From a virus (taxonomy: Duplodnaviria > Caudoviricetes): 63,461 nucleotides of DNA. This document shows positions 3,016 through 38,325 of this stretch, in pieces. A model generated the notes under the pieces. That model saw nothing but the letters and a program-made list of their open reading frames with translations. It ran no database searches and was not told the DNA's origin. Within the stretch, counting starts at the first letter, position 1. Each line of letters begins with the position of its first letter. The DNA is taken from IMG/VR virus record IMGVR_UViG_3300034092_001286, positions 1-63,461 of that record, one strand, 5' to 3'. The translations under genes and the position numbers were made by a program.

Positions 3016-3019
3016 CACC

Positions 3020-8730: not shown

Positions 8731-8736
8731 ACCATC

Positions 8737-12608: not shown

Positions 12609-12703
12609 TATTTATATCCCCCTGACCTATTGACGAAGCCGTCAATGTACGATAATCTCCGTCGTGTTGCAACTGTTTTTTAACCCGTCACATGGAGAAT
12701 CAT

Positions 12704-13492: not shown

Positions 13493-13493
13493 C

Positions 13494-14624
13494 ATGAGCT
13501 ATCCAGCCCGAGAACATGCGCAACTGCCGCCAAGCAGTGCGCATTGTTGGGTCCGTTGCGCAGGGTGGCGGTCGCTTCATACCGCGTTCCCTGACAGCGG
13601 GGATACTGTGCCTGCAATGGAAGGCACGGCGGCACACTGGTGCTTCGAGCAGATGTTTGCCGGTGTCATACCGGAGGTCGGTGCGTCAGCGCCGAACGGT
13701 ATCCTCATCACTGACGAGATGCTTGACGGTGCGGAACTGTATGTTGATACGGTGCGCAGCATGGTGCCGGCCACTGGCGCGAGCACGTATGTCGAAGACC
13801 GAGTGTCGATGGCTACGACCGTGCATGACGCGAATTGGGGAACACCCGATACGTTCGCGATTGCACATGACCGCTCAGTAGTGTGGCTCTTCGACTACAA
13901 GTTCGGGCACCGCTACGTCGAAGAATTCGAGAACTGGCAATGCATCGATTATGTCGCTGGTATTTACGATGCGATGTTGCCTGTCGTTGCGTTGCCCGAC
14001 TCGACCGTCGTTCACATTACAATCTGTCAGCCTCGGGTCTTCAATCGCGGCCAGCCTGTCCGCACATGGACGACGACTATCGGTGCGCTCAAGCCGTACT
14101 GGCAGCAACTGGCTGCCGCCGCGCCGCTGGCAATGTGTGACGACGCGCCGTGCGTGCCGGGTGACTGGTGCGAGTTCTGCAACGGTAGGCATGCATGCGA
14201 GGCGCTGCAGCGCACAGCACTGGCCGCAACGGACGCAGCCTACAGCAGCATACCGCTGGTGCTACCGCCCCTTGCTGCGGCTCGGGAGCTACGGGCAATG
14301 CAACGGGCTGCGTCCATGCTCGAAGCGCGCGTCACGGGCCTGCAGCAGCAGTTGCTTGACCTGTGTCGGGCGGGTACCAACGTACCGTATTACAGCATCG
14401 AGCGGGCGCAGGGCAGGCAGCGTTGGACTCGTCCGATAGCGGAGGTCATTGCGCTCGGTCAGATGTTTGGACTGGACGTAAGCAAGCCCGGTGCGATCAC
14501 GCCGAAGCAGAGCGTAAAGCTCGGCGTGCCGGCCGGCGTCGTAGCGCAGATGTCGGACGAACCGCTCGGCGAATGGCGTCTGGTCGAAGCAACGACCGAC
14601 AAGGCGCGGAAAGTGTTTGGATAA
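13494..14624 (+). CDS. DUF2800 / Cas4-like PD-(D/E)XK exonuclease
   Basis: HA.L.PSSA..W..C, EGTAAH, GTPD, DYKFG, I.QPR, PG.WC.FC...C. Confidence 0.85.
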   Translation: MSYPAREHAQLPPSSAHCWVRCAGWRSLHTAFPDSGDTVPAMEGTAAHWCFEQMFAGVIPEVGASAPNGILITDEMLDGAELYVDTVRSMVPATGASTYVEDRVSMATTVHDANWGTPDTFAIAHDRSVVWLFDYKFGHRYVEEFENWQCIDYVAGIYDAMLPVVALPDSTVVHITICQPRVFNRGQPVRTWTTTIGALKPYWQQLAAAAPLAMCDDAPCVPGDWCEFCNGRHACEALQRTALAATDAAYSSIPLVLPPLAAARELRAMQRAASMLEARVTGLQQQLLDLCRAGTNVPYYSIERAQGRQRWTRPIAEVIALGQMFGLDVSKPGAITPKQSVKLGVPAGVVAQMSDEPLGEWRLVEATTDKARKVFG

Positions 14625-14639
14625 CCACAGGAGAACGAT

Positions 14640-14855
14640 ATGCATGAAGGTGACAAAGTGACGGCAGCACAGCAACTTGGCTGCTACAAAGAAAAAGACC
14701 CGATGTCGCAGCTGACGTGCGGCGAGAATTTGGAGCGCAAGATCGCCGAACAAACCGAACGGCTGATGATGCTCGAAGCGGCCAAGAAAGAAATGCAAGA
14801 TACGGGTCTTTACAACGTGAAGATTTCCACGCTGCGCGACACGATGTCGTGGTAA
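14640..14855 (+). CDS. hypothetical protein
   Basis: CAGGAG RBS. Confidence 0.7.
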   Translation: MHEGDKVTAAQQLGCYKEKDPMSQLTCGENLERKIAEQTERLMMLEAAKKEMQDTGLYNVKISTLRDTMSW

Positions 14856-14865
14856 CACGCAACGC

Positions 14866-14895
14866 TTGACAAACCCTAACGGTGTATGCCAACAT
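14866..14895 (+). promoter_or_regulatory. putative extended -10 sigma70 promoter
   Basis: TTGACA, 18 bp, TG-c-CAACAT; similar to 22145-22173. Confidence 0.45.
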
Positions 14896-14933
14896 ACGCC
14901 ACCGTAATATAACCACGTAAGGAGTAATACCGT

Positions 14934-15635
14934 ATGAGCAAGCCTTGCAAACGATGCGGCGGCACTGACAGATACCCTAGTGGTGGATGTAAGCGTTGCG
15001 TATCTGAGCAACGCAAGCTCTGGCAGCAAAACAATCCCGAACGAGTAAAGGAAACACTTGCTGCTTGGATTGCCAAAAAAGTTCCGTGCAAACGGTGCGG
15101 CGGAACAAAGCGCGGGGCGAACGGTACGTGCTCTGCGTGCGCCGCTGCCGATACTAAGCAGTGGAAAAAAGACAATCCAGAGAAGAACAAAGCTCACCGC
15201 AAGGCGTGGCATAAAAAGAATCCTGACAAACAGCGAGCGCGTACCAATAAGTATCACGCAGCACATCCTGAGAAACGGAAGGTAGTTGGCGAGCGTTATC
15301 GTGCCAACCATCCTGAGAAGGTGCGCGAGACTAGGCGTCGAGTTGTAGCTGCTTGGACAAAGGCCAATCCTGAAAAGGTGAAAGCTAACGCAGCGCGTCA
15401 CCGTGCCGGAAAGATTAAGGCCACCCCAACGTGGGCAAACAAATTCTTTATGGAGGAAGCATATGCGTTAGCTCTGTTACGTTCAGCCACGCTTGGATTT
15501 GATTGGCATGTCGATCATATCGTGCCACTTAATTCCAAGATCGTGTGCGGACTGCACGTCGAACACAATCTGCAAGTAATACCAGCGTTACATAACCTGA
15601 CCAAAAGCAATTTGATTTGGCCGGATCAACCGTAG
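14934..15635 (+). CDS. HNH homing endonuclease with Zn-finger N-terminus
   Basis: CKRC repeats; WHVDHIVPL..VCGLHV..NLQVI...NL.KSN; lower GC than the flanks. Confidence 0.88.
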   Translation: MSKPCKRCGGTDRYPSGGCKRCVSEQRKLWQQNNPERVKETLAAWIAKKVPCKRCGGTKRGANGTCSACAAADTKQWKKDNPEKNKAHRKAWHKKNPDKQRARTNKYHAAHPEKRKVVGERYRANHPEKVRETRRRVVAAWTKANPEKVKANAARHRAGKIKATPTWANKFFMEEAYALALLRSATLGFDWHVDHIVPLNSKIVCGLHVEHNLQVIPALHNLTKSNLIWPDQP

Positions 15636-15656
15636 TTACTTTTAGGAGAAATACAT

Positions 15657-16571
15657 ATGTCAATCAATTTGACGAGTCCTGTAGGGAGAATCGTCCAAGG
15701 CGAACTGTGGAAAGCACAGCCCGTTCTCGATCAGCGTACCAACCAGCCGAAGCTCGGCAGCGACAACCAGCCGCTCGTGCAGCACTTCTTTGCACTGGCA
15801 ATCCCCAAGACTCCCGGCCATACCCATTGGGCACAGACCGAATGGGGCCAGAAGATTTGGGCTGAAGGCAACCGTGCGCATCCGAACTTCGCGCCGCACC
15901 CGACGTTCTCATGGAAGATTGAGGATGGCGACTCGCAGGTGCCGAACAAGAAGGGCAAGAAAAACGCAGACCGCGAGGGCTTTCCGGGCAACTGGATTCT
16001 GAAGATGCGCTCGGGCTTTCCGCCCAAGACCTACAACGCCAACGGCAGCGAGATGGTTCCGGCCGAGTCGTTCAAACCGGGTCATTACGCGCAGGTCAAC
16101 ATCAACGTCGCCGGCAACACGGGTGATAGTCCCGGTGTGTATCTCAATCCGGTGATGGCAGCACTGGCTGGCTATGGCGTAGAGATTGTGAGCGGACCCG
16201 ACGTTGCCGAGGCCGGCTTCGGTCAAGGCGTCGCGCTGCCCGCTGGTGCGTCCGCTGTGCCGGTCGGTGGCTTTGCACCGCCCGCCGCAGCAGCACCGGT
16301 ACCGGGCCACCCTTTGGCCCCTGCCGCGCCTGCCTACGCCCCGCCCGTTGGTGCTCCTGCAGCACCGTACCCGCCTATTGGTGCGCCGGCTGCGAGCCCT
16401 TCTAGCCCTGTGGCTGCTCCGAATCCGGCATTCCTTGGCGTGCCCCCGCCCCCTCCCGCTGCACCGGTCCGTAACATGACCGCCAAGGCGGCAGGTGCCA
16501 GCTACGAGCAATTGATCGCAGCCGGCTGGACTGACGCAACGCTTCTCCAACATGGGATGATGACAGCATGA
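15657..16571 (+). CDS. ssb: single-stranded DNA-binding protein (DUF2815 / T7 gp2.5-like)
   Basis: KI.DGD, PG.Y..V.......GVYLN; located between exonuclease and polymerase; Pro/Ala-rich tail. Confidence 0.75.
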   Translation: MSINLTSPVGRIVQGELWKAQPVLDQRTNQPKLGSDNQPLVQHFFALAIPKTPGHTHWAQTEWGQKIWAEGNRAHPNFAPHPTFSWKIEDGDSQVPNKKGKKNADREGFPGNWILKMRSGFPPKTYNANGSEMVPAESFKPGHYAQVNINVAGNTGDSPGVYLNPVMAALAGYGVEIVSGPDVAEAGFGQGVALPAGASAVPVGGFAPPAAAAPVPGHPLAPAAPAYAPPVGAPAAPYPPIGAPAASPSSPVAAPNPAFLGVPPPPPAAPVRNMTAKAAGASYEQLIAAGWTDATLLQHGMMTA

Positions 16572-16789
16572 GCGCCTTCAACGACGGGACCGAAGCCCGC
16601 AAACTTCGGATGAAGCTCGGCCAGAACCAGACGCAATTCTGGTCGCGTGTCACCGTGCAGCAGTCCGCTGCCAGCCGGTACGAGACGGGGCGTGAAATCC
16701 CCGAGTCGGTGCAGGTGCTGCTGATGATGGCATACGGCACCGACAAGCAGGCCGCTGCTGCACTGGCGGGCCTGCGCAAGCAGCCGTAG
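16568..16789 (+). CDS. XRE-family HTH regulator
   Basis: LR.KLG.NQ..FW..V.V.QS..SRYETGR.IP..V. Confidence 0.85.
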   Translation: MSAFNDGTEARKLRMKLGQNQTQFWSRVTVQQSAASRYETGREIPESVQVLLMMAYGTDKQAAAALAGLRKQP

Positions 16790-24398: not shown

Positions 24399-25199
24399 AT
24401 GACCGACATCAAGGAACTCATTAGAGGAATTCTAGACGCCGAGTTAGTGGAACAAAAAGGCGAACTAGAAGGGTTAACGCTTCGACAAATGAACGCTGTC
24501 AATGCGATTGCGTGGAACGTCGCCCAACGCTTCCTCGCCGCCTACATCGCGGAACAGGAACCGGAGTGGTATCACTACTGCATCAATGATAATTGGGATG
24601 GGTTCAGCAAAGAACTCCCGCCTGATGACGCCTGCGACGAAGGGACACTAACCAAGCTATTCACCGCACCACCACTCCCTAAACCCGCACCAAAGGAGGC
24701 AGGATTTCATGACGTAGCTGAATTCTACAAAGAGCCTGCTGTGTGTGCGACCCCCTTGCCAGATTGCATTCTGTGTGCCAACGGAAACGATCTGCCTGAA
24801 GGCGAATATTGCCGTGGTTGCGGCCGCAGCAATGAATCAAACTTGAAGCGGGCTGTAAGGCTTGCGCGTGGAAGTAGCGAACCACCATCAGTGAAGATTG
24901 GCTTTGCGGCCCCGGCGTCCGAGGAGGTGCAGTGGATGCTGAACCACTTACGCGCAATCAGAATGACACAAGCTGCTGACCTGATCGAAAGCCTAGCCAA
25001 GCAAGTACAAGATGCGGACAACGAATGGGTTGCGCTGCACGCGGAAATCTATGCGTTGAAGCAGAGCCTAGCCGCTCGGGTTCCTGTTGGCTGGCTCGAC
25101 GGTCGTGGTAGGTTCTTTTATGCCGACGATCCGATGTATAAGAACAACCACGAAGGAATGCGAGAGGTGTTTGCAGCGGCGCATCTCACCGCGCCTTAA
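24399..25199 (+). CDS. mosaic hypothetical protein with Zn ribbon
   Basis: GGAGG RBS; CILC..CRGC; last gene of the plus-strand operon. Confidence 0.7.
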   Translation: MTDIKELIRGILDAELVEQKGELEGLTLRQMNAVNAIAWNVAQRFLAAYIAEQEPEWYHYCINDNWDGFSKELPPDDACDEGTLTKLFTAPPLPKPAPKEAGFHDVAEFYKEPAVCATPLPDCILCANGNDLPEGEYCRGCGRSNESNLKRAVRLARGSSEPPSVKIGFAAPASEEVQWMLNHLRAIRMTQAADLIESLAKQVQDADNEWVALHAEIYALKQSLAARVPVGWLDGRGRFFYADDPMYKNNHEGMREVFAAAHLTAP

Positions 25200-28100
25200 A
25201 CATCTCGTTGTATCGACGGGTCGTAGCGGTGATCCGTTCCTCAAGCATCTTGACTCGCTCAGGATTGCCGCCCTTCGCAATGACCTCGCGCTTCTGCCGG
25301 CGCAGATAACCTATCTCGCGCTGCGCCCGGTCTGCAACCTGCACCAGTCGTGCGTCAGGATGTTCCGACAGATACGTTCGCATCGCCTCACCGTTGCCGT
25401 CGTCCTTCATTGCTTCCAGCGCGGACTTGTGCTCGCCGATACGTTCAAGGTTGCGATAGAACCTGCTTGTCTCCGACGACTGCCCCTTCGTCTCGCCGAT
25501 GAAGCGACCCACACCAAGCGGTGTCTTGTGCATCGGCAGTTCCTCACCGGTCACCTTGCTGCCGACATACTGTGCGGTCTTCAGTAATTCGCGGCCGACA
25601 CCACCGGTTGCTTGACCGACGAGGTAGTCGATCTGGTCAGGCGTTGGCGACGCCATGCCGATCTCATACTTGCCGCCACCCGTAATGTAGTTGATTCCAT
25701 AGGACAGCCAACGACTCGGTGGCGACGCGCTGTCCTTGGTCCGCGTCCAGCCTGCGGTCGGATGCATCTTGTTGAAGTCTTCTTTGAAGATCGACTTGCC
25801 AGTCCAGTCTTTGTTCTCACCGAGTGCAATGATCGGATCGCCAATCGTCGGCGATAGCGTCTGCGCGAGCGTACCGCTGCCGATCGGGTTGAATGCATCG
25901 AGCATCAAGCCGGCCAGACGAACAAGACGCTTGCCGGGGTTTTTGAATCCGCCCATCATCCACTCGGCGGTGATGCGGCCGATGTTAGGAATGACGTGGA
26001 AGCCGAGCGGCATCGGCACATTGATAACCTTGTCGGTGCCGAGGATCGGAATGATGAAATTCTTCTCGCGCTGGAACTGCGGCGGTTCGTCGTCATCCCA
26101 TCCAGCCGCCGCGCCGAGCATCGCCTGCAACACACCAAGCATCATGCCACCGTAGAGAATCTTTTTGCCGGCGTCAGTCAGCTTGCCGTCCTTGTAGGTC
26201 GTCTCGCCGATCCGTGCGGTGCCCTGCACGGCAGCATTGAAGAATGCGTACAACGCGCCGGTCTGTGTGGCGGCCAGTCCTTTCTTGTTGAAATTGACCG
26301 TCAGGTTCTTGGCGAGTGACGCAGCCGCATCACGACTCATGCCTTTGTCCAGAGCCACCTTGTACGCAGACAGCCGCATCGCATTCTCAACTGCGGTGTT
26401 GTAGTCGGACAGCCAGCCAAACACGGCGCTGTGCCGCTCGCCGCCCGTGACCCATTGCTTTCCCTTGCCGGCGTGCTCAAGCTCCTTGGCGATCGCTTCC
26501 GCACGATCGGTACTGGTAGCAAACGCATCGCGATAGCCGGTCTTACCGCCGTCCATTGCGAACTGCTCAAACAGTTGAGCCCATTGCGAGGTGGGCTGCT
26601 TGCCCGCACGATGATCGCGCAAGTCGGCATAGACACCACGTAACGCATCGAAGGCATGTCGCGCTACAGCCGCTCTATCAGCAGACAACGGTGTACTCGA
26701 CAGGTTCAGCATGCCCGTGCTGAAGTCGCGGATACCGTTGGTCATGCCGAAGATCGGGTTGTACTGTGTATTGACACTGGCGAACCATCGTGTGACCGGA
26801 GCGATAACTTGCAGCACACCACTGACCGACGCTGCGTCCAGATTCTTCAGGCCACGAACCATCTCCTGTGCGCGTTTCTTGTTGGAGAAAAATACGTACC
26901 GTTCCTCGCCGTTAATGCGCGTGCTCAGTACGTCGTCACGACCGCGCAGTTGCGGATTGATCCGCTGCATCTCAAGCCCGGTCTTCGGATCGGTGTATCG
27001 CTGCACCGGTTCGTATGCCAGATTCTTCGCATCCAGCGGATTGACACCGATCGCTACCAGTTCAGCAATAGCCGCTTGTAGCGCAGCCGGCGAGAGCTTC
27101 TTATTTAGTTCAGGATTGACCGGTATCCAGAACTCAGGATTCGGTGCCGACAGTGCCAGTCCATAGACAGCCTGCGCCACACGGTTCTTCTCGCTGCGCG
27201 TAATCGCCCGCTCGCGCTGCATGGCAATGTTTGCCAGCACATCGGTGACAGCACGCTTGCTGCCGAGGGCGCGCTTGCTGGCTGCACCACGCACCGAGAA
27301 GCCGGTGCCTGTACCGTTGCCAAGGCCGAACGCTCCCGAGTAGTTCGCATCGGACTCCATGTCCCGCTTGAGTGGTGCGTAGTGTGCGTAGGTGCGCTTC
27401 CACGTATCGACCGTCTCTTGGGTTTCCAGACCGCTCGATACGAGCAGATCGAGCGTGCCGTTGGTAATCGCATCAACCCTGCTAGCGACCGCCTGCGCGG
27501 CCCGCAGTGCGGCAGGGGTAAGTTGTATCGTCCGACCGTTCAGCGTGACCGCCTGCCCGGCAAGGATGGCGGCTGACTGCGCATCCGACATGCCCGAGCC
27601 ATCAGTAATTGTTGGATTGGTACGATTGTTGGCGGCATTGCGCTCCGGTGCGTGTCGTGCCCACAGGTAATCATCCAGATCGGCCATAGTCAGCTTGCGC
27701 ATCGCCATGTCTTCCATCAGCTTGCGCAGTTCCCCATCGGCGAACGCATCGACCCGAGCGGCAGCCCGACCGTGATAGTTCGTTTCCAGCAGGTAGGCAT
27801 CGAACTTCTCCTTGACCGCTACACCAGCCTCACGGATCGCACGGAGCACACGCTTCGTATCGATCTTGTCGTCCTGCATCTTTCTTACAAAGTCGTCCCA
27901 ATCCGTCACGTCTGGATCGGTCCATGACTGGTTGATCGGCTGACCATTTGTGCGGGAGCGGGGAGTGCTCTGGCGCGGTACGTCAGCAGCAGCAGTCAGC
28001 AGTGCCGCGATCTTTTTCTCAGCGGCAGGATCGTCAGGAATATCAGACTGACTATCGTATCCTTCAGCAAAGTGCTGCTTGTGCGTGATGTGTTCTTCAC

Positions 28101-31100
28101 GTTTGAATCGAGCGAGCCATGCAGCAGGTGACGACGCGCTACCGAGGAAGTCGTAGATCGTACCGTCGATTCGAGCGCCGTAATGATCAGTCATATCGTT
28201 ATTACTGCGAACGATACGCACCAAATCACCGCCGCCGAATGCACGGATCAGAGCCTTCGCGCAGATCAGACAGCCGCCATCGAACGGCCCGCTGTTGTTA
28301 CTCGGTCCGAAGTCAAGTGCCTCGTACAGTCGGTCATCCTTATAGACAGCAGCTATTGCCGCGTCTATGCGTCGCTCACTCCGACGTATGTCATCGTCCT
28401 CACGACTATAGGCACCGGAGTTACCGCTGGCCGACTTGACCTGATTGGGCGAGAACACCGCAAGGTTCGTCACGCCGCGCTCGCGAACGTAAAACGAGTC
28501 GTGGTTCTCACGGATATATTCCTGCACCTGCGGACTCTCAATAGCGTTCCAGTCGCCGCGTTCCAGATCGCCGATATGTTGTGCAACCTCGACCATCTCG
28601 CCGTTGATGAATTCATGCCCCATCCACGATCCGCCGAGCAATTGCTCGATCTGCTGTACGTGCTGCGGGTTGCGGTAGTCGAACGGGTTTTCAGCCCGCA
28701 CGTACAGCGGCATGATGTTCGATTCGCTCGGCATGAACTTCTCGACCGCACGACGCATGTACTGGCTCGGCTGCTGGCTCTGGTTTAAGAGCCGTTCCTC
28801 GCGGTTGTATAACGAGCTACCCGGCAGTGCATCAGCCAGCAGCATCTTGCGCGCATCAGCCTTCGCTTCCTGTATCTGATCGGGCGTCATCCACGTCCAG
28901 AAGTTGTTCAGCATCCAGCTATGCGACAGGTCTGAAAACTCTGCGGCAAACTCGGGATCGTCGGTCAGGAAGATCGCGTCAGCCTGCTGTGGCCGGAACG
29001 TCGATATGTCACGGGCGGTGCCGTGGTACATGACGGTGCGTACCTTGGACTTGCCGAGCCATTGGTCGCGACGTTCAGAGAAGCGCGGAGTACCTTCGTC
29101 TCGAAGTTCTTTGTCACGTGCGAGAAGTTTGTCAGGATGCCACGGACCGTCAGCCAGTTCGCCACCTGCGTAATATTTGACTTCGACAGGCATGTGCTTC
29201 CAGCCGAGTTCAAGCGCAGCCATGATGCGATGATTCCCTTCATTGACCCACGGCATTCCGTTGTGATCAATCTGGATGAACGGCGCGTACTCGTCAGTGC
29301 TTTCCTCTCGCACAGACGGCAGGCGACCTGTCTTGCCCATGTGGTCTTTCAGCCAGTTTAGATCGTCGGTGCGCACGCTACGCTGCTCGCCCATAATTCC
29401 TTTGACATATTGAAGGCGACGAAGCGGGATGAGCACCTTGTCCGAGAAATAACCAGTCACGGCACCGAACCGTTTGGGCGCACCGTGCGTGTTCGTTCCC
29501 GCTGCTTCTGCGTCACGTTGTTGCGTGCGCAGCCAGTCGCCACCGGGATTGTCGGTACGCAGGCGCGGCTCACTACGTTTCTCCGGTGCATCCTTCGGCA
29601 TATCGGCAAGACGCTTATAGAAAGTTTCGCCGACCTTATATCCGCGCAGCTTCCATCTACCAACTGCTTCGGAACCGAGCATTGTCTTGCCAGTGCGCCC
29701 GGTATCCCACACTTCAATTTTCACCACATCGTCGGATGTTCTACGAGAGGCGCGCTTTACGCCGGGAACGGTAGTCTCAACCACCCACCCACCTGCCGGC
29801 TTACGTGCCGTGCTAAACAACGGCATGCCGATCCGTGCCTGTTGCCGCATCTCGTCGGTGATGTCGAAGCCGGGTTGGGGCGCGCCGGCTCGCTTCTTTA
29901 GAGCAGCTTCGGCAGCTTTTTCAGTACGATAAACAGTGTCGTCGCCATCAACATGCCATGCATTCGGATTTCCGGCATCTCGCCACACACCTTCGCCTGC
30001 TTCGTGCCCATCTGTCGTAAGCTGCACCTGTAGCAGCGTCGCACCGAGCTTGCGCGCGACCTGCTTAACGATACCGTCATAAAACGCGACCATCCCTTCG
30101 CCGCCGACTCGCAGAGCCTGCCCGCGCATGACGCGCTGGTTGTTCATGTCAGGCTTCATTGCCAGCAGTTTTGCTGCTGCGTCTTTACCAATCAGGTCGG
30201 CGAGTTCTTTCTCGTCGGCAAACGTGCGCTCGATTACATTCGCGCCATCCTTGCGGGCTACGAGGGTGTTATCGTCATATGCGACCAACTCGTCAACCTG
30301 CTTGCTCAAGTCATAACGCTCGACCTGTTGCTCACCTGTCGTCCATGCCACCCGGTCAAATCCGTTATCGACGGCATAGGCAATCGCGCGCTTTAGCGCC
30401 AGTGCGGTCCATGCCTGCGTGTCGGTGACGAAGGGTGCTGATGGTACTGCCCCTAGCTGCACGTCAGTCTCGACGACACTAAAGTCCTCAAGGCCAGCAT
30501 CACGCCCATACTGTTCAGCATCTGCGCGACTACCGAAGTACGTCGGACGCAGAGGGCCTCCGGTGTTATCTGTGATGGTGTACCGCGCGGTGCGCCCAGC
30601 AAACCCGTCCTTCCGCCCCTTCTGCGCCCAGTCGCTCTGCACTTCCTCGATGAACAGCACGCGCTTGCCGCCAGCATCGGTCCGCTCGTCAAAGCGGACG
30701 TGCGCGAGGATGTTCGGTTGCGGGTAGTGCGAGCCGCGGAACTCTTGCTTGCGACTCTTGTCGGTTTGCATCTTCTCGATGCGTAACGGGTATTTCTCAA
30801 GATCACTGGCAAGTTCTGGCACCGACGATATGCGGTCAATATAACCTTGAGCGTCTTCGCGCGTCTTGAACCCATCATGCGGGAATGCACCATAAACAGA
30901 GAACGTATTTTCTTCCGGTGTGCGGCGCGGCAGTACCAGCAGCAACTCACGGTACGTACCGGGCTTGCCACCCGGCAGTGACTGCTCGCTGTATTTAACC
31001 TGCTCACCAATCGCCGCCTTACGCTGCTCAAACAGTTCGTTCTTGCGGTTGAGTGCGCGCCCGTAGGCGAGCATGGCGTCGAGTTGTTCGGGCGAGAATG

Positions 31101-34100
31101 GGTCGTTGGTTTCAACAACACCGGTACGATTTATCCGCTCCATCGCTAAATATGACGACGAACTGTTTTTCCATTGCGCACCAAACGCAGCCTTCCGCAG
31201 CCGTGCAACCTCTACCTCCTGCTCCTGCAACTCAGCATCCAGCCGCTTGTACTCGGCCGACTCCTCACCGAGCATCACGTCCCTGACGCGCACGCCGTTG
31301 CTCGCCAGCCAGTCCTGTATCTGCGCGCCCGTCACGCTGCGTTGCGTCGCCAGCCAGTCCAGTACGCCGGACCATTGCAGTTCGTCTTTCTTGACACCGA
31401 GCTTGCTGGCATTGCTCTGCAGCCACAGCGCCGCTTCCTTGCCTGTGCGCACCTTGGCCGGCAAGCCACCGACCGCTTCGGACAGTTGCGAGCGATACCA
31501 TTCCTTGCGGGCCTCAGACTTACGGGCTTCGGCGCTGGCACGGCGCTGCGAGAATAGCGGCATACCGGCAGCGGCCGACTCACGGAGCTTGTCGGTAATC
31601 TCGAAGCCTTGCTGAGTACCAATCTCTATGGCAGCCTTGCTGGTTGTGAGCGATTCGACGTTTAGTTCTGCACGTTCCTTCGTCGGATGCGACACAAGTT
31701 CCTTGCCGTCCTGCTGCACGATCCAGCGACCGGCCGTGTCAGGATCAGGTGCGACACTGTACTGCCGCACCTTATGCACCTCAATGTCCTTCACCCGCAC
31801 GTCCTTGTCGAACTTTTTAAGTATGTCGTTTGCAATGTTCGGCAGCATCCGATCATAGAAGCCGGCCATGCCGGTATCGGATATGGTAATGTCATCGCCG
31901 GTAATCTCGCCCGACTGGTTCGGATCGGCGATGATCTGCTTCGCCATCTGTTTGCCGATCGCATCGGACAGTGCCGTCTCGCTGACGCGGGTGTCTGTAC
32001 GCTGCCTGCCGTTCTGGCTGGCGACAATATGAATGCCGTCAGGTGTTTTCTCCCATGCGATCGTATCGACCTGTTTGCGCAGGCTGTGACGCCACCGCTC
32101 GACCTGTTGGGCACCGCTCGTCCAGACCACTTTGTCAAAGCCGTACTCGACAGCATGAGCGATCATGCGCTTGAGCACCAGACCAGCCCATTGCGGCGTC
32201 TTCTCGATGAATGGTGCGGCGTCGGGTAGGTCGCGACTGAGCGCGTCATACTCGCGTTGCAGTTCGCGCCGGTTTGTCTCTAGCTTGGCAATCTTGTCGG
32301 CCGCAACCTTGGCGTCGGACGATACGTCGTTAGATAGTGCACGTGATCCCATCGACCTGACGTTATTCCAGTCAGAACTTGTCCATGCGTCTTCAGCTTC
32401 CGGCAAGACTTGCTTCAGCGCGAATATCGCGTGAACGCCTTCGTCACCTAGCTCATCAATCTGCTTGATCAGTACCGCAGCCCGCTCTGCCGCCTCCAGC
32501 CCCTCACGCCGCTGCTGACCCCAATCACCCTGCACTTCCTGCAAGACCATGACGCGCTTGCCGTCGCTGTCGGTATGCTCGTCCCATCGGGCATGGCCGA
32601 CGACGTTTGCTTCCTGCCAGTGTGTCGTGTAGTAATAGTCTTTGACAGGCGTGCGTTCGGTACGCAATTCGTCGGGCCTATATTCCCATCGACCGCCGAT
32701 GCGTTCAGCCTCTCGCTTGGCAGATTCTTCCGATACCGTACCGAGCGTCGCGTTGCCGTCCGCATCAAACACGGTGTATGAATCGCGCTTCAGCGTCTCA
32801 GTTACCGGCATACCAAACGCACCGACCGGCAGCGTCAGTTGTACCTCACGATACGACCCCGGCACCGCACGTCTAGTATCTAAGTTGTAGTCTTTGCTTT
32901 CCCATTTAACGCTATGGAAGTCACCACCGGAGCTACCGGAAACCAGACCTTCCTCCATGACGAGCTGACGGATCACACCTTCTACATCAGCGTCGTCAGC
33001 ACGGCGCGGCAGCGGTATGTCGCGCCCGTCAAAATACACCCGACGCTCACCATACGACGTACTGTCATAGAACGTACCATCCACACCATCGACCGTGATA
33101 GCGCGCGTCTGCGGAGATTCATAATCGTCGTAATACCACGTGCGTTCCTGCTCCGTCAGTTCTTCCAACAGCTCGTCGTCGTCAATCTCGGCACGGGCGC
33201 GACGACGGGCTTCCTCTTCCAGTGCTTCAATGTCACCGGACAGCACGGCAAACGCGCGATCGACCGCTTCGGCCTGCACCGCTTCGTCGGTCATGTCGTT
33301 GCTGTCGTCTGTGTATTCCTGCCACGTATCGCCGGCTACCTGTGCCGCCGCAATACTACGAGCGGCTTGTTCAACCAGCGTTTCATCGACCGGGAACATG
33401 TCACCCATCTGACGCTGCACGTCGGCCGCAATGTCAGGCAGATTGACCTCTATCCGTGTGCGGGCTTCGTGCTCTATGTCGTCGTAAATGTCTTCCCACG
33501 ACTGCTCGACGCGATCATCAACAACCTCATCGAACCGATTATTCGCACGCTCGGCCAGCCAGTCCTCGTCAGGATCGTCCATCTCCCACTCACCGACGTT
33601 CAGTTCAATGTCACTGTCTTCCGCATCGACCTCTTGCGTGCTGTCAGTTACCGGGCTGCGCTCACCTCGCAGTATGGTTTCGATCTTTACGCCAAACTCA
33701 GACAGATACGCCTGCACCTGCTCGCGTGTGACCTGCGCCTCGCCCTGCGCGTCGAGCCACTCTTCAATACCGGACCACTTGATTTCATCCGGCTTGACAC
33801 CCTTGGCCGCCAGCGACTTGAGCCACGACTTCCAGCCCGATGCCGGCGCTTTCTTCATCTGTGCAGTATCAGCCTGACGGGCGAGCGGGGAGTACCACCA
33901 TGTAGCGGGACGACTCTCAGAGAGACGTGCAACCGGTTCTGCAAGTGCGGCTTGTGCCGCAGCGAGCTTGTCTGTATTTGAGAACGATTCCGGTATTGGC
34001 CGCAACGTGCCGTCCTGCGTCACTGCGTATCGGTTGTAGCCGCTAGCGCCATAAACGACACCCGTGCCGCCGTTGTCTTTGTATAGATCGTAGGTGCGCT

Positions 34101-37100
34101 CGTCAGGATACTCGGAGCGCATACTTTCGGCTTCTCTCCACAGCGACCGGAACGTGTTGTATCCGTAATCGCCGTCCATCGTGAGTTTGCCGTTCTCGAT
34201 CTCTTGCAACGCCGCAAGCATAGGACGAGTCTCGCTCATGCGTGCCGGCTCTGCACGAGGTACCAACTCATCACGACGGTACATCTTGTCATTGTCGAGC
34301 CAGCGCGGATCAAGTTCAGGCATCTCACGCAGCAGAGCGCGCTTCCATTCCAGACCGGTCATCTTGCCAGCAGGCAACGCGCGGTTTGCCATCAGCTTGC
34401 GACGCAGCACCTGCTCGTCGCTAAACTTCGGTGCCGGCATATTCGGTACATCCGGTCGTGCCCGCTCGCCCTCATACTGCACCGGCACACTGTGAGCGCC
34501 GAGCAGCACGACAGCACCGCCCTTGCCGAACTCACGTGTCATGTAGCCGTCGAAGCCGGCGTCAATGACGCCCGCCTCGAAGTCGTTCATCAGGTTGTCG
34601 GGTGACTGGTACGGATCGCCTTCAGCGAGACGCTTGTATAGACGCTTTGGATCAACGTCCATGTCATAGACGTTGTTGAGCGTGACGCTATGTGCGTGGT
34701 GCCCGACATCCGACTCGGGCGCGATGCCCTTGCCGGTGTTGGCATAGAAGTACAACCGTTTCTTTATGCGTGAGTCTTTGGCCTCGGCAATACGGAACCG
34801 TTCTTGGGCCTTCATGCCCGTGCCGAAGAACCCGCTACTTAGGGTGTCTCGCTGCTGTCGGGAGTAGTGGACTCCGACGACTGTTTCGCCGCTTCCTTCG
34901 CCGTAGCTAGGGCGCTGTTCGCTCTTGCGCGCAACGCCTGCTCGATCTGATCGATCGCCGGCTGCATCGGATCGGCCTCGGAGCTTGCGGGCTTCATCAC
35001 GCCACTGATTAACGTCCCGCGCTTGAGCGCGCAGTCTGGCGGAAGACCCCTGATCACTTTGCATACCATAATCGTTCTCTCCTATCATTGCGCCGAAGCC
35101 TTCGTCGAAATAGACGGTAGCGACGCCTGCCTTGTCCAGAATGGACACGACTTGTTGCTCCAACTGATTCATGCGTTCGACAGGCAGACCGATATACATC
35201 TCGTTGTCCAGTGTCGAATGCCCTGATATTGCATCGCTGTCCAGCGCCCTGATCTGTGTGTAAATCTTATGCACCAGCGCACGGTCAGACGAATCAATAT
35301 TGAAATGGATTATGCCGGTCTTTTCACCACCTGTAAAGGGCTTTAATCCGAGCGCATATACCGCTTCCTGATCAAGCACATAGCCGACAGCGCGGGCAGC
35401 AACGGCAGGATCGCCACGTGTTACAACCAGCGCGAACGACGGATTCGTATCTTCCATCCAGCCACCAAGCTGCGGTCGGATAGTTCCGGTAACTCCAAGG
35501 TCTTTCAGCAGACCCGGTATCACGCGAGACTTTATATCCTCGCTGACAGCACGTTGCTGCTTGTCGCTGAGTTTGTTCCACGCGGCAGCTTCATTCGGTT
35601 TCGGTGCGACCTCAAAGAACAGGCGCTGGTCACGTTTGACACGCGCAGGCGACAGCGCAGCAAGCTCACGGGCCCGAGCGTCTGACAATTCGTCATCTGT
35701 CTCTAGCACAGCGGGCTCACCCTCACCGGCCTGCGATCGACTGTGCGTCCGCGACGTATTGATCCGATGCTCCGTGGTGTGCTCACCTTGATCCGGCTCG
35801 ACAGTACGTTCGCCACGGATGAACGCAGCATACGCGCTGCTGATTGCATCACGGGTCGCTTCGATCTGCTCGGGCGAGATGGTCGCGTAGTCGCCTTGTT
35901 TCTGCGCACGGACGACAGCGAGAAACTTGCCGAGCGTCTCGCGTATCGCCATTACCATCCGTTCGATGATGCCGCGAGCTTTATCGCCCTCCTGCTTCTC
36001 GATCTTTGCAAACACGTCAAGCCAGAACTTTTCATCCGACCAGTGCTGACCGCCAAGGTCGGACACCATCTCGTCCAGCAGGAACGCTTCGACGGTGTTC
36101 TCGCTGGTGTGGAACAACTCTTTCTGCTCGGGCGTGAGCGCGGACGACCAGTCAGGCATGGCGCGTGCGGCTTCGAGCTTTGCGGCATTCTCAGCGTTGC
36201 CGCCCCAATAGTCAGAGGCGAATGCGTCCAGCGCCTTGCGCTTGTCCGGCATCGTGGCAACCAGCGCATCACGCACCGCAGCCCACGCCTTTGCGTGCCG
36301 ATCGCGCAGAACGTGCGTGACCTCATGGCCCATGACCTGCATCGGATTGATCTGTGCGGCCGTGTTGATATGAACCGTGTTCTCCGATCGATTCGGTACG
36401 GCACCATCGCTGCTGCCCGGTGCGAACTCGAATACCACCTTCGTACCGGTGATCCGGCCCATCTGCACAAGCACCTTGCGCATGTTGCGTGTGACCTTCT
36501 CACCCTTGATGTCCGGTCCGGTTTCGCTACGTAGCTGACTCTGCGGTCCGAAGATCGGTCGCGGCTGGCTAGAACGCTCTGCATCGGCCGCCATGCGGTT
36601 AAGCTCTATCTGCTCTGCGGTGAGCGGCGCGGCCGGCACAGCGGGGCGCGCAACAGGTGCGGCGGGCATTGCCGTAGCAGGTGATTCTTCGTCAGCGAGA
36701 CGTTGCTGCTCGGTTACGGCCGGCTGCGTCGAGAATACCCCACGGGCCGGGCCTGCTGCGCTGATAACAGGCACCACCTCGAAGCGACCAGCAACCTCGC
36801 GGTGCGGACGCATCTCCTGCGACGGGTCTTTGCTGACGATTTCCTGTGCAGCACGTTGCGTGTAGGCCGGCACGTTCGTCACGGCGGTACCAGTGATAGG
36901 TTGCACGCTGCTGGCGGCTACCGTGGCTTCATTGGTGATACGCGCCGCTTCACCCTGACCGGGCTGCACACCAGCGTCAGGCGTGACGATACCGGACGGA
37001 ACGGCGGGATCGAGCGCACGCATCGTCTGTACGACGCGCTGGCGCATGTCGGCATCGAGACGCATCAACGCCTTGGTCTGTTCCCCGGCCGGAAGGATCG

Positions 37101-38325
37101 CAAGCTGTTCAGCCAGTGCGATCAGTGCGGGACCAGCAGGGCGATCTGGTGTGACGATCTGTTGCGCGACAGGTACGCCGTCAGTCGGTAGTGCGATGGT
37201 GGGCTGTGCGGCAGTCGGCTGCTCGGGCATGCCGACCATCGGTATCGCGCTGTCTGCAGGCACACGTGCAGCTTCGGCAGCGGCAGACCATTCGCTCTTA
37301 AACGCATCTATTGCCGGTGCGAGCGTATCGATCGGTGCAGCAAGCGCGGCATCGGCGGCAGCGATAGCGTCTGGTAGCGTTGGTGCTTTAGCGATGTCGT
37401 CGACGGTGGGTGCGGGACGTGCGAGCGATCCGAGCAGATTGCCACCGCCGCCCATTGCTGCGCCGACGAGCATGCCTTGCGCCGCAGCCTTATCAACACC
37501 TTCCATCAGCGGTTTGCCGAGCGCTGCGTTCTGCCACACCTGTTCTTGCGCAGACTGCGGCAATTCTTCAAAGACACCTTCGCTCAATCCACCTTCAAGG
37601 ATGCGACGGACGATACCTTTCTTGACAGTCGCAACGGCCGCGTCCTCGCTTGCATCAGCGGCGATGCCTTTGACCAGCATCGTATCAACGTCATCAACGC
37701 CGAGCCGTTTTGCCAGACGACCGCCGATCGCACCGAGCGCACCTGTACCGATACCGGATGCAATGGACATAGCGGACTGCGCAGCGGTCAGATCGCCGGT
37801 TGTCTGGCGAGTGCTCTCAGCCATTGAGCCTGCCGTGATCGAACCTTCGCCGATCGCAGCCGCAATCCACGGAGCGACCTTCGGCGCAGCAGCAACAACA
37901 CCACGACCGACGACGCCGCCTGCGCCCATCGAGCCGAGCGATTCGATTGCACCGTGAGCAATGACGCTAGGGTTTGCAAGCAGCGCACCGATCGTCGGGA
38001 AGAAACCGTCAGCTTGATCGACTCGACGATTTGCGGCTTGCTGTGCCGGCGAGAGTTCTTCGTCGAGGATGCGCTTGGCTTCTTTGAATCTGACTCCCGC
38101 GCTTTCGACTAGATTGCCGACCGCACCGCCCGTTGGAATGTCAGCAAGACCGACCGCTGCTTCCGGCACTGAGATTGCAGACTTGAGCGCGGATATACCG
38201 ATGTCTTTTACGGTTCCGCCGAAGGTGCGTTCTGCAGGTTTGTCGGGTGCAAACAGTTCGTCGGTAGTGTAGATACGATCAGACGAACCGAACAGTTCGT
38301 CGGTAGTGTAAATCTTGTCAGCCAT
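25186..38325 (-). CDS. giant polyvalent protein, probably virion-ejected (metallopeptidase, ART-like, ParB-like, papain-like, duplicated domain, LPD38-like C-terminus)
   Basis: 4379 aa; HEVTH; YHGT..IFLT..PLYVR.ENP..VFSPNQVKS; EGNHRI.AA; GGC..DHY..YD; NFNKKG..FFNA.VQG; last gene of the internal-virion cluster. Confidence 0.85.
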   Translation of the reverse strand: MADKIYTTDELFGSSDRIYTTDELFAPDKPAERTFGGTVKDIGISALKSAISVPEAAVGLADIPTGGAVGNLVESAGVRFKEAKRILDEELSPAQQAANRRVDQADGFFPTIGALLANPSVIAHGAIESLGSMGAGGVVGRGVVAAAPKVAPWIAAAIGEGSITAGSMAESTRQTTGDLTAAQSAMSIASGIGTGALGAIGGRLAKRLGVDDVDTMLVKGIAADASEDAAVATVKKGIVRRILEGGLSEGVFEELPQSAQEQVWQNAALGKPLMEGVDKAAAQGMLVGAAMGGGGNLLGSLARPAPTVDDIAKAPTLPDAIAAADAALAAPIDTLAPAIDAFKSEWSAAAEAARVPADSAIPMVGMPEQPTAAQPTIALPTDGVPVAQQIVTPDRPAGPALIALAEQLAILPAGEQTKALMRLDADMRQRVVQTMRALDPAVPSGIVTPDAGVQPGQGEAARITNEATVAASSVQPITGTAVTNVPAYTQRAAQEIVSKDPSQEMRPHREVAGRFEVVPVISAAGPARGVFSTQPAVTEQQRLADEESPATAMPAAPVARPAVPAAPLTAEQIELNRMAADAERSSQPRPIFGPQSQLRSETGPDIKGEKVTRNMRKVLVQMGRITGTKVVFEFAPGSSDGAVPNRSENTVHINTAAQINPMQVMGHEVTHVLRDRHAKAWAAVRDALVATMPDKRKALDAFASDYWGGNAENAAKLEAARAMPDWSSALTPEQKELFHTSENTVEAFLLDEMVSDLGGQHWSDEKFWLDVFAKIEKQEGDKARGIIERMVMAIRETLGKFLAVVRAQKQGDYATISPEQIEATRDAISSAYAAFIRGERTVEPDQGEHTTEHRINTSRTHSRSQAGEGEPAVLETDDELSDARARELAALSPARVKRDQRLFFEVAPKPNEAAAWNKLSDKQQRAVSEDIKSRVIPGLLKDLGVTGTIRPQLGGWMEDTNPSFALVVTRGDPAVAARAVGYVLDQEAVYALGLKPFTGGEKTGIIHFNIDSSDRALVHKIYTQIRALDSDAISGHSTLDNEMYIGLPVERMNQLEQQVVSILDKAGVATVYFDEGFGAMIGENDYGMQSDQGSSARLRAQARDVNQWRDEARKLRGRSDAAGDRSDRAGVARKSEQRPSYGEGSGETVVGVHYSRQQRDTLSSGFFGTGMKAQERFRIAEAKDSRIKKRLYFYANTGKGIAPESDVGHHAHSVTLNNVYDMDVDPKRLYKRLAEGDPYQSPDNLMNDFEAGVIDAGFDGYMTREFGKGGAVVLLGAHSVPVQYEGERARPDVPNMPAPKFSDEQVLRRKLMANRALPAGKMTGLEWKRALLREMPELDPRWLDNDKMYRRDELVPRAEPARMSETRPMLAALQEIENGKLTMDGDYGYNTFRSLWREAESMRSEYPDERTYDLYKDNGGTGVVYGASGYNRYAVTQDGTLRPIPESFSNTDKLAAAQAALAEPVARLSESRPATWWYSPLARQADTAQMKKAPASGWKSWLKSLAAKGVKPDEIKWSGIEEWLDAQGEAQVTREQVQAYLSEFGVKIETILRGERSPVTDSTQEVDAEDSDIELNVGEWEMDDPDEDWLAERANNRFDEVVDDRVEQSWEDIYDDIEHEARTRIEVNLPDIAADVQRQMGDMFPVDETLVEQAARSIAAAQVAGDTWQEYTDDSNDMTDEAVQAEAVDRAFAVLSGDIEALEEEARRRARAEIDDDELLEELTEQERTWYYDDYESPQTRAITVDGVDGTFYDSTSYGERRVYFDGRDIPLPRRADDADVEGVIRQLVMEEGLVSGSSGGDFHSVKWESKDYNLDTRRAVPGSYREVQLTLPVGAFGMPVTETLKRDSYTVFDADGNATLGTVSEESAKREAERIGGRWEYRPDELRTERTPVKDYYYTTHWQEANVVGHARWDEHTDSDGKRVMVLQEVQGDWGQQRREGLEAAERAAVLIKQIDELGDEGVHAIFALKQVLPEAEDAWTSSDWNNVRSMGSRALSNDVSSDAKVAADKIAKLETNRRELQREYDALSRDLPDAAPFIEKTPQWAGLVLKRMIAHAVEYGFDKVVWTSGAQQVERWRHSLRKQVDTIAWEKTPDGIHIVASQNGRQRTDTRVSETALSDAIGKQMAKQIIADPNQSGEITGDDITISDTGMAGFYDRMLPNIANDILKKFDKDVRVKDIEVHKVRQYSVAPDPDTAGRWIVQQDGKELVSHPTKERAELNVESLTTSKAAIEIGTQQGFEITDKLRESAAAGMPLFSQRRASAEARKSEARKEWYRSQLSEAVGGLPAKVRTGKEAALWLQSNASKLGVKKDELQWSGVLDWLATQRSVTGAQIQDWLASNGVRVRDVMLGEESAEYKRLDAELQEQEVEVARLRKAAFGAQWKNSSSSYLAMERINRTGVVETNDPFSPEQLDAMLAYGRALNRKNELFEQRKAAIGEQVKYSEQSLPGGKPGTYRELLLVLPRRTPEENTFSVYGAFPHDGFKTREDAQGYIDRISSVPELASDLEKYPLRIEKMQTDKSRKQEFRGSHYPQPNILAHVRFDERTDAGGKRVLFIEEVQSDWAQKGRKDGFAGRTARYTITDNTGGPLRPTYFGSRADAEQYGRDAGLEDFSVVETDVQLGAVPSAPFVTDTQAWTALALKRAIAYAVDNGFDRVAWTTGEQQVERYDLSKQVDELVAYDDNTLVARKDGANVIERTFADEKELADLIGKDAAAKLLAMKPDMNNQRVMRGQALRVGGEGMVAFYDGIVKQVARKLGATLLQVQLTTDGHEAGEGVWRDAGNPNAWHVDGDDTVYRTEKAAEAALKKRAGAPQPGFDITDEMRQQARIGMPLFSTARKPAGGWVVETTVPGVKRASRRTSDDVVKIEVWDTGRTGKTMLGSEAVGRWKLRGYKVGETFYKRLADMPKDAPEKRSEPRLRTDNPGGDWLRTQQRDAEAAGTNTHGAPKRFGAVTGYFSDKVLIPLRRLQYVKGIMGEQRSVRTDDLNWLKDHMGKTGRLPSVREESTDEYAPFIQIDHNGMPWVNEGNHRIMAALELGWKHMPVEVKYYAGGELADGPWHPDKLLARDKELRDEGTPRFSERRDQWLGKSKVRTVMYHGTARDISTFRPQQADAIFLTDDPEFAAEFSDLSHSWMLNNFWTWMTPDQIQEAKADARKMLLADALPGSSLYNREERLLNQSQQPSQYMRRAVEKFMPSESNIMPLYVRAENPFDYRNPQHVQQIEQLLGGSWMGHEFINGEMVEVAQHIGDLERGDWNAIESPQVQEYIRENHDSFYVRERGVTNLAVFSPNQVKSASGNSGAYSREDDDIRRSERRIDAAIAAVYKDDRLYEALDFGPSNNSGPFDGGCLICAKALIRAFGGGDLVRIVRSNNDMTDHYGARIDGTIYDFLGSASSPAAWLARFKREEHITHKQHFAEGYDSQSDIPDDPAAEKKIAALLTAAADVPRQSTPRSRTNGQPINQSWTDPDVTDWDDFVRKMQDDKIDTKRVLRAIREAGVAVKEKFDAYLLETNYHGRAAARVDAFADGELRKLMEDMAMRKLTMADLDDYLWARHAPERNAANNRTNPTITDGSGMSDAQSAAILAGQAVTLNGRTIQLTPAALRAAQAVASRVDAITNGTLDLLVSSGLETQETVDTWKRTYAHYAPLKRDMESDANYSGAFGLGNGTGTGFSVRGAASKRALGSKRAVTDVLANIAMQRERAITRSEKNRVAQAVYGLALSAPNPEFWIPVNPELNKKLSPAALQAAIAELVAIGVNPLDAKNLAYEPVQRYTDPKTGLEMQRINPQLRGRDDVLSTRINGEERYVFFSNKKRAQEMVRGLKNLDAASVSGVLQVIAPVTRWFASVNTQYNPIFGMTNGIRDFSTGMLNLSSTPLSADRAAVARHAFDALRGVYADLRDHRAGKQPTSQWAQLFEQFAMDGGKTGYRDAFATSTDRAEAIAKELEHAGKGKQWVTGGERHSAVFGWLSDYNTAVENAMRLSAYKVALDKGMSRDAAASLAKNLTVNFNKKGLAATQTGALYAFFNAAVQGTARIGETTYKDGKLTDAGKKILYGGMMLGVLQAMLGAAAGWDDDEPPQFQREKNFIIPILGTDKVINVPMPLGFHVIPNIGRITAEWMMGGFKNPGKRLVRLAGLMLDAFNPIGSGTLAQTLSPTIGDPIIALGENKDWTGKSIFKEDFNKMHPTAGWTRTKDSASPPSRWLSYGINYITGGGKYEIGMASPTPDQIDYLVGQATGGVGRELLKTAQYVGSKVTGEELPMHKTPLGVGRFIGETKGQSSETSRFYRNLERIGEHKSALEAMKDDGNGEAMRTYLSEHPDARLVQVADRAQREIGYLRRQKREVIAKGGNPERVKMLEERITATTRRYNEMFKAR

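Follow-up and report, generated by a model that had tools for sequence, protein, structure and literature searches.

The DNA analyzed here, called the window, is the complete 63,461-bp virus record IMGVR_UViG_3300034092_001286 (Caudoviricetes), which carries direct terminal repeats. Its left half encodes a DNA polymerase, a primase, and a helicase, and its minus strand carries the terminase, portal, major head protein, and tail protein genes. The same strand holds a giant open reading frame (ORF) whose product, P0001, is a chain of 4379 amino acids in which a short S-x-x-R motif recurs. Nucleotide positions below are those of the window, residue numbers are those of P0001, and the other P-numbers denote family homologs.

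A Pfam scan of the whole of P0001 (E ≤0.01) found just LPD38 (residues 4079-4269, E = 4e-42) and the ADP-ribosyltransferase (ART) family ART-PolyVal (residues 3200-3305, E = 1.1e-13), and PHROGs profiles matched conserved blocks at both ends (Table 1). One chain thereby combines many unrelated domains, namely these two, two more folded domains, and a domain with an HExxH motif. Because of LPD38, ART-PolyVal, and the conserved terminal blocks, P0001 qualifies as a phage-type polyvalent protein as described by Iyer et al. 2017 (PMC5512222), where LPD38 is listed as phage-only. Of 1652 proteins scored in a search with the C-terminal domain, 922 reached E ≤0.001. With the same domain, tblastn found 348 phage records, every one at <60% identity, including many Stx-converting podophages and phages of Vibrio, Ralstonia (31), Burkholderia (10), and Bacillus. 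Megablast of the giant ORF against phage records gave no match, and the related-locus searches in viral contigs returned close relatives only (5 loci and 3 loci).

A preliminary description of the window, made from its letters, had listed 11 copies of the motif in P0001, with one domain in each interval and an HEVTH peptidase motif N-terminal of the array. All 11 strings and the HEVTH motif are present in the translation where they had been placed. The strict forms of the motif are more frequent than in shuffled sequence: R.SE.R was observed 6 times versus 0.10 expected (0/2000 residue shuffles reached 6), SE.R 7 times versus 1.37 (1/2000), and S[EQT].R 14 times versus 3.29 (0/2000). In contrast, the loosest form, S..R, was not enriched (24 versus 18.6; reached in 216/2000 shuffles). 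These patterns had been picked after the sites were seen; therefore, we derived the motif again, as a matrix, from homology breakpoints in 121 family members (see below). The matrix scores all 11 sites at ≥7.7 bits and, at ≥10 bits, finds 9 sites in P0001 versus 0.51 in shuffles. At that threshold, six-frame stop-to-stop segments of ≥80 residues outside the giant frame, real genes or not, gave 11 matches versus the 9 inside it, with no pattern. Two additional matches in P0001 (1302 and 2446) lack an arginine at position +3, and the one at 1302 is probably due to chance, because it is located in a part of the 880-1380 structural model with a high predicted local distance difference test (pLDDT) score. 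By comparison with homologs, which have a clear motif at the same position (e.g., GLFSQPR and KLSTQR), RSSQPR is likely a twelfth site.

The claim of one domain per interval was borne out where it can be tested. ART-PolyVal falls within the interval 3087-3312, and AlphaFold2 predicted two well-folded domains that occupy 896-1131 and 1139-1360. Of the nine cargo modules, M1 to M9, eight matched no Pfam family above the cutoff, and NCBIfam gave 0 families for 10 segments scanned, eight cargo modules included. Foldseek on the 880-1380 model, which contains M1 and M2, returned generic ferredoxin-fold matches only and no function. M2 is modeled with high confidence, is found in 112/255 proteins, matches no known family, and has many nearly invariant residues, including G272, H274, S276, and R280 (numbered by the first sequence of alignment A2); it is therefore a good candidate for an uncharacterized effector. 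M4 and M5 are paralogs (BLASTP, 29% identity, E = 1e-38), and both end in GMPLFS. Homologs of this type occur in 78/255 family proteins and belong to no Pfam or NCBIfam family; the two have conserved stretches in common, among them H.R.DE.TD..GKRV....E.Q.DW and another around GFD.V.WT.G.QQ, and from these they look like an enzyme of unknown kind. The tail of the ART module, ...KSAxGNxGxF...DIRxS, runs into the junction that follows. At its start (window 38252-38313, residues 3-26), P0001 has a tandem peptide repeat, DKIYTTDELFG and DRIYTTDELFA, also visible in the DNA as a 23-nucleotide direct repeat of 96% identity.

Table 1. The giant ORF and its features, from N to C terminus (matrix scores in bits; HMM, hidden Markov model)
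Feature	Residues	Window position	Strand	Basis and remarks
Giant ORF, 4379 aa, polyvalent virion protein		25186..38325	-	ORF list, translation; 20.7% of genome
Conserved N-terminal domain, motif-free	27-294	37444..38247	-	phrog_30335, E 9.6e-58
HExxH domain, predicted gluzincin-like metallopeptidase	581-857	35755..36585	-	HMM envelope, AlphaFold2
Candidate twelfth junction, RSSQPR	584-589	36559..36576	-	regular-expression match; matrix <6; just upstream of HExxH domain
HEVTH (HExxH)	667-671	36313..36327	-	invariant in alignment
Junction ALSPAR, Ser 892	890-895	35641..35658	-	matrix 7.7; residues 892-896 pLDDT <50
M1, tandem ferredoxin-like fold	896-1131	34933..35640	-	AlphaFold2; homologs in 51/255 proteins
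Junction ARKSEQR, Ser 1135	1132-1138	34912..34932	-	matrix 12.3; in pLDDT <50 segment 1119-1135
M2, well-folded conserved domain	1139-1360	34246..34911	-	AlphaFold2 blocks mostly >90; homologs in 112/255 proteins
Junction ARMSETR, Ser 1364	1361-1367	34225..34245	-	matrix 11.3; in pLDDT <50 segment 1360-1380
M3	1368-1465	33931..34224	-	absent from close homologs P0003, P0011, P0014, P0015
Junction ARLSESR, Ser 1469	1466-1472	33910..33930	-	matrix 13.7
M4, M5 paralog	1473-2255	31561..33909	-	BLASTP versus M5
Junction PLFSQRR, Ser 2259	2256-2262	31540..31560	-	matrix 17.9
Junction ARKSEAR, Ser 2270	2267-2273	31507..31527	-	matrix 9.8; 11 residues past PLFSQRR
M5, M4 paralog	2274-2834	29824..31506	-	BLASTP versus M4
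Junction PLFSTAR, Ser 2838	2835-2841	29803..29823	-	matrix 19.7
M6, rare	2842-2914	29584..29802	-	homologs in 3/255 proteins
Junction EKRSEPR, Ser 2918	2915-2921	29563..29583	-	matrix 8.0
M7, rare	2922-3079	29089..29562	-	homologs in 4/255 proteins; no Pfam or NCBIfam match
Junction PRFSERR, Ser 3083	3080-3086	29068..29088	-	matrix 20.0
M8, ADP-ribosyltransferase (ART-PolyVal)	3087-3312	28390..29067	-	Pfam E 9.3e-17; 189 copies in 149/255 proteins
Junction IRRSERR, Ser 3316	3313-3319	28369..28389	-	matrix 16.1
M9, weak YunG-like match	3320-3449	27979..28368	-	PF24591, E 6.5e-4, 19.9 bits, below Pfam cutoff 27
Junction PRQSTPR, Ser 3453	3450-3456	27958..27978	-	matrix 13.8; precedes conserved C-terminal domain
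Conserved C-terminal domain with LPD38, family-wide	3457-4379	25189..27957	-	phrog_14770, residues 3476-4367, E 7.1e-181

Gain, loss, and exchange of modules at the motif

We compared P0001 with the best 120 of the 922 homologs (2.4 to 6.1 thousand residues long), which have a common C terminus and widely different middles. Counting the ends of high-scoring segment pairs that lay >30 residues from protein ends (n = 606), we found 176 within 5 residues of a motif serine, versus 21.0 ± 16.5 for random placement of the sites (0/2000 placements reached the observed number). An all-versus-all comparison of the 121 proteins gave 937 breakpoint peaks, reduced to 604 nonredundant contexts of 41 residues. 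Expectation-maximization on these contexts, run from random seeds with no prior motif, returned [GP]-x-[APIV]-[RLK]-F-S-[REPT]-x-R, with serine at 0.89, a motif found in about 38% of the contexts. Motif discovery from breakpoints alone thus returned an S-x-x-R motif that matches all 11 sites of the preliminary description. The 121 proteins contain 434 matrix matches, or 3.59 per protein versus 0.39 in shuffled sequence, and 19 of the proteins have none. Within 15 residues of a breakpoint peak, zones that make up 6.7% of the sequence, lie 295 of the 434 matches; 20 fall in the last 900 residues and 1 in the first 300.

Homologs differ by entire modules, with the break at the motif serine, in agreement with the suggestion that module insertions and deletions would end at the motif. 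Each of the four homologs that are missing M3 keeps a single junction there, and in P0003 the join is a hybrid, ARMSESRPATWW, whose left half comes from site 1364 and whose right half comes from site 1469. M6 and M7 (2842-3079) are jointly missing in P0006, P0012, and P0015, with a break at the motif on both sides, and therefore GMPLFS joins the ART module directly. Loss of M9 in P0012 likewise leaves a hybrid site, DIRASTPRS. The exchange break is the serine: the residues before it travel with the upstream module and those after it with the downstream module.

The ends of individual modules were then scored for a motif of ≥8 bits, using full-length copies in peptidase-bearing proteins. A motif was near the N-terminal and C-terminal ends, respectively, of 45/79 and 62/79 copies of M2, 59/67 and 67/67 copies of M5, and 51/69 and 55/69 copies of the ART module, but of merely 17/34 and 9/34 copies of M1; random windows of 46 residues carry the motif 5 to 7 times per set. 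These results show that the motif marks module boundaries family-wide and that modules are gained, lost, and swapped there.

The 11 junction serines are encoded by TCG, TCT, AGC, and AGT (5 TCN and 6 AGY), and no family of direct or inverted repeats of ≥16 nucleotides coincides with any junction. Since both serine codon families are used and the junctions have no DNA repeat, selection acts on the peptide; on the evidence of the codons, the motif is shown to be kept at the protein level. A DNA-level recombination site of the shufflon kind was rejected for the same two reasons, the absence of ≥16-nucleotide repeats at the junctions and the 5/6 split of serine codons. The AlphaFold2 model of residues 880-1380, built from alignment A2 (20 sequences, whole proteins), had a mean pLDDT of 80.6 and a predicted template modeling score (pTM) of 0.51. 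Four segments of this model have pLDDT <50 (892-896, 1087-1095, 1119-1135, and 1360-1380), and three of them contain all three motifs of the region (Ser 892, 1135, and 1364). The modeled fold of the HExxH domain stops at about residue 842; a low-confidence stretch of some 38 residues and then a short helix connect it with Ser 892. These models place the motif in predicted flexible linkers.

The HExxH domain and the register of the junction motif

Residues H667, E668, H671, E752, D756, and G759 are invariant in 20 aligned sequences that share 72% to 17% identity with P0001, and the HExxH motif is intact in 176/176 domain copies away from protein ends. The AlphaFold2 model of the domain (pLDDT 77.1, pTM 0.72) consists, in order, of three strands, the HExxH helix (model residues 86-101), and a later helix (model residues 170-187) bearing E752 and D756. 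Strands, HExxH helix, and later helix come in this order in zincins, and in the model E752 or D756 is a candidate for the third metal ligand. A wide structural scan with VIA-align gave its best Z score, 5.0, for the metalloprotease PprI, and among the 50 fold matches listed, 15 have titles naming zinc metallopeptidases (Z, 3.4 to 5.0), all below the value of 8 under which, according to the tool's warning, a match may be chance. They include lethal factor (4.3), PepO, neprilysin, and ECE-1 (4.0 to 4.5), and BepA, LasB, ZMPSTE24, thermolysin (3.5), PPEP-3, and HtpX (3.4 to 3.7). A complex prediction for the peptidase core (A1 residues 14-267) and a 36-residue junction peptide (3066-3101) gave a score of 0.02 against a mark of 0.32 and counts neither way.

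No Pfam model, polyvalent-protein peptidase models included, matched the domain (residues 601-895) at E ≤1; no NCBIfam family did so, and the nearest ESM Atlas clusters are unnamed. The MuF_C domain of the homolog P0006 (3068-3155) belongs to another module. Judged by these profiles, the HExxH domain is a family separate from the Pfam peptidases of the 2017 polyvalent-protein study, and although many polyvalent proteins have a zincin-like peptidase of a Pfam family, membership does not depend on one. When a profile of the domain was run against 1.84 billion representatives, 3294 proteins matched at E ≤0.001, of which 1392 reached 1e-10 and 216 reached 1e-30; nearly all of the best 150 matches are giants of 1 to 5 thousand residues. 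Searching 50,697 phage records by tblastn with the P0001-type domain gave no match, and therefore no cultured phage with this domain is at hand.

The domain is present in 63 of the 121 proteins and absent from 58, with 5.49 and 1.52 matrix matches per protein, respectively (p = 1e-15); for distant members only, the values are 4.56 (n = 34) and 1.47 (n = 55). Separate motif searches returned [PAIV][RKL]F-S-x-x-R for the proteins with the domain (serine at 0.91, +3 arginine at 0.86) and x-F-[SGA]-[RDK]-[SG] for those without. After the conserved ART tail, the +3 arginine is present in 124/138 unique copies where the protein has the domain (107 proteins) versus 0/31 where it does not (28 proteins; Fisher, 2e-23). 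ART modules therefore occur in both groups, and the +3 arginine does not track ART. Before the C-terminal domain, S..R is present in 58/70 proteins with the HExxH domain versus 8/57 without (Fisher, 1.7e-15). The sequence there is S-T-P-R-S-R-I-T-G-Q in the former and F-S-R-S-x-I-T-G-Q in the latter; the two registers share the arginine, and in proteins with the domain the serine is two residues closer to the N terminus. In 135 further proteins, collected with the peptidase profile alone and of which only 23 have a BLAST-detectable C-terminal domain, we counted 338 matrix matches versus 38.6 in shuffles.

An HE[WF][FWG]H motif occurs in 18 of the 58 proteins that lack the P0001-type domain. 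Gp57 of Bacillus phage Dartukuta (L009, coding sequence 4032-16643) and a protein of Escherichia phage phi367 (L010, coding sequence 4453-11721), both without the P0001-type peptidase, have HEWWH or HEWFH motifs and [FY]-S-[RK] junctions, e.g., DIRFSRSAN, FYSRKGM, and YYSRTSS. Judged by such sequences, [FY]-S-[RK] may represent another junction code, served by an enzyme of its own.

Proposed self-processing and its alternatives

The preliminary description had read the motif as a cleavage site, a module junction, or both. Module gain and loss are directly supported by the data above; the cleavage half is favored indirectly, because of amino-acid-level conservation, the position in flexible linkers, the invariant HExxH...E...D residues, and the covariation of the register with the domain. 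Therefore, we hypothesized, with about even confidence, that P0001 is a self-processing polyvalent virion protein whose motif would be cut by the HExxH zinc peptidase in cis. Conserved N- and C-terminal domains bracket the peptidase domain and about nine cargo modules, and every module boundary presents [P/A/I/V]-[R/K/L]-x-S-x-x-R in a flexible linker. This motif would be the recognition and cleavage site of the HExxH...E peptidase, and the cuts would yield the N-terminal part, the peptidase, separate effectors, including the ADP-ribosyltransferase, and the C-terminal part. With a uniform site, any module dropped in would still be released, so that one motif could serve both processing and shuffling, which would explain why exchange and release take place at the same spot. 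Cutting after injection, as the preliminary description has it, is conjecture, and the cuts might be made in the capsid or in the host cell. As precedents, processing of polyvalent proteins by zincin-like peptidases was predicted in the text of Iyer et al. 2017 (PMC5512222), and mass spectrometry has placed distant homologs in virions (see below). More tentatively, at somewhat less than even probability, we propose that the large, unnamed zinc peptidase family (3294 representatives) makes giant virion proteins self-cutting effector cassettes, with phi-[RKL]-x-S-x-x-R read in cis, so that any module with the code on its flanks would be delivered and released, and a sister code, F-S-R, in relatives with another or no in-cis peptidase.

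Several points weigh against self-processing. The zincin fold matches are weak; Foldseek on the HExxH model returned nothing at E ≤0.001, and a profile of the domain compared with PDB sequences found no real match, just a spidroin at E = 0.26. A motif is close by on either side of the domain in only 80/176 and 79/176 copies, versus 32/176 random windows, and only 300/937 breakpoint peaks carry a match of ≥10 bits. Shared ancestry or a common module pool confounds the covariation: relatives resemble each other in both traits, and the raw counts therefore overstate the case. In a tree of the C-terminal domain, on which presence of the HExxH domain changes at least 16 times, nine supported independent pairs divided into 5.2 that differed in the same way, 0.6 in the opposite way, and 3.2 with no difference (median p = 0.125). 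In a tree of the 138 ART copies, made with the tail and junction left out and with at least 22 state changes, seven supported pairs divided into 4.9, 0.0, and 2.1 (median p = 0.0625). The direction is consistent in these independent contrasts, but the pairs are too few for significance, neither value being below 0.05. Homologs without the domain keep an F-S-R junction, and 16/58 of them have no HExxH anywhere; a junction motif can therefore exist without an in-cis zincin.

The alternative that survives best, although we consider it unlikely, treats the motif as a flexible joint that is never cut, an adapter for in-frame swaps of modules that fold independently; the protein would act at full length, and the HExxH domain would be one more effector, with host proteins or the cell wall as its target. 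Only the gain and loss of modules at the motif are actually shown, and junction motifs persist in homologs without any HExxH, both as this alternative would have it. The phage N4 virion RNA polymerase, which has a zincin domain yet is packaged uncut according to the text of PMC5512222, fits it as well and is a further point against self-processing. A preprint on phage phi24B (bioRxiv 10.64898/2026.04.10.717836) proposes, in its text, a wall-degrading role for the metallopeptidase domain of gp47. However, a passive linker leaves unexplained the near-invariant serine (0.91) and +3 arginine (0.86), the retention of serine across both codon families, and the switch in serine-to-arginine spacing with the HExxH domain when the flanking modules are the same.

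We regard as more doubtful still a cleavage site for a trans-acting protease, of the host or encoded elsewhere by the phage, with another job for the in-cis HExxH domain. Such an enzyme would suit the relatives that keep the F-S-R junction without any HExxH, but it leaves unexplained why the register tracks the in-cis domain, and no protease family was found among the other window ORFs scanned (20 with PHROGs, 10 with Pfam). A modification or docking site, by serine phosphorylation, arginine ADP-ribosylation by the in-cis ART, or contact with DNA or the capsid interior, is highly improbable: an invariant serine flanked by basic residues would suit such sites in general, and R-x-S-x-x-R resembles a basophilic kinase site, but P0001 has no kinase family in Pfam, ART modules occur with and without the +3 arginine (which is in none of the 31 copies from proteins without the HExxH domain), and the motif is confined to boundaries, as its near absence from both protein ends indicates.

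Comparison with known systems

DarB-like proteins of Bcep22-like podophages and gp47 of phi24B have the C-terminal domain and the place in the virion module in common with P0001. According to their texts, the DarB-like homolog gp69 of phage JC1 (PMC9144972) and phi24B gp47 (bioRxiv 10.64898/2026.04.10.717836) were detected in virions by mass spectrometry, and, as far as those texts show, no fragments of the giant proteins were reported. The sole DarB link of P0001 is phrog_10089 over residues 3973-4244, in the common C-terminal domain. DarB of phage P1 combines a helicase and a methyltransferase, whereas P0001 has neither Pfam family, and therefore the DarB name does not fit. A hydrophobic stretch, ILYGGMMLGVLQAMLGAAAGW, lies within the C-terminal domain, and the N-terminal domain has Gly/Ala-rich hydrophobic runs; judged by sequence alone, the two would fit membrane insertion by an ejection protein. 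Elsewhere in the window, directly downstream of the portal gene and towards the head genes, is an endonuclease VII-like gene (52317-53024, minus strand; phrog_1035, E = 1.1e-18).

In polymorphic toxins, the exchange boundary is marked by VENN (CdiA) or DPxGL (Rhs), and the Rhs motif is also a self-cleavage site. Like the motif of P0001, these are short conserved peptides at the point of module exchange; unlike it, they mark one boundary before a single C-terminal toxin, whereas the P0001 motif occurs about 12 times between many cargo modules. Prohead proteases also cut head-packed proteins at a short consensus, T4 gp21 at L/I-x-E and phiKZ gp175 at S/A/G-x-E. The consensus of P0001 differs from these, and its candidate enzyme is part of the substrate. 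No prohead protease was found among the same 20 (PHROGs) and 10 (Pfam) scanned ORFs, which are a subset of those in the window and many of which have no family at all.

The polyvalent proteins of PMC5512222 likewise join many effector domains in one phage polypeptide, and P0001 shares LPD38 and ART-PolyVal with them. Supplements aside, the main text of that study names no junction or cleavage motif, whereas P0001 has one; the zincin self-processing predicted there in 2017 came, in that text, without a defined site, and the motif would add one. Word searches of the literature, whose coverage leaves out subscription journals and supplements, found no description of the junction motif. Polyvalent proteins are considered the earliest that a phage delivers into the cell, and most of their domains are of unknown function; with the boundary motif, thousands of such giants can be divided by a simple rule into individual candidate effectors. 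Should the HExxH domain prove to cut there, the prediction of 2017 gains a defined enzyme family and a site, and S-x-x-R and F-S-R would represent coevolution of protease and site within a mobile effector system, with two or more registers.

The closest likeness in logic appears to be with the MARTX toxins of Vibrio, in which a cysteine protease domain is activated by inositol hexakisphosphate and cuts after leucine. Conserved delivery ends, exchangeable effectors, a candidate in-cis protease, and reshuffling by recombination would be common to both. P0001 differs in its candidate zinc peptidase, its S-x-x-R site, its phage capsid carrier, and its bacterial target, and the Pfam scan of the whole protein (E ≤0.01) found no C80 peptidase family. 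By analogy, P0001 would work like a MARTX toxin without being a member of that family. If this is true, such proteins would be the phage equivalent of MARTX toxins, directed against bacteria, and their readable grammar could guide the search for new antidefense effectors in metagenomes.

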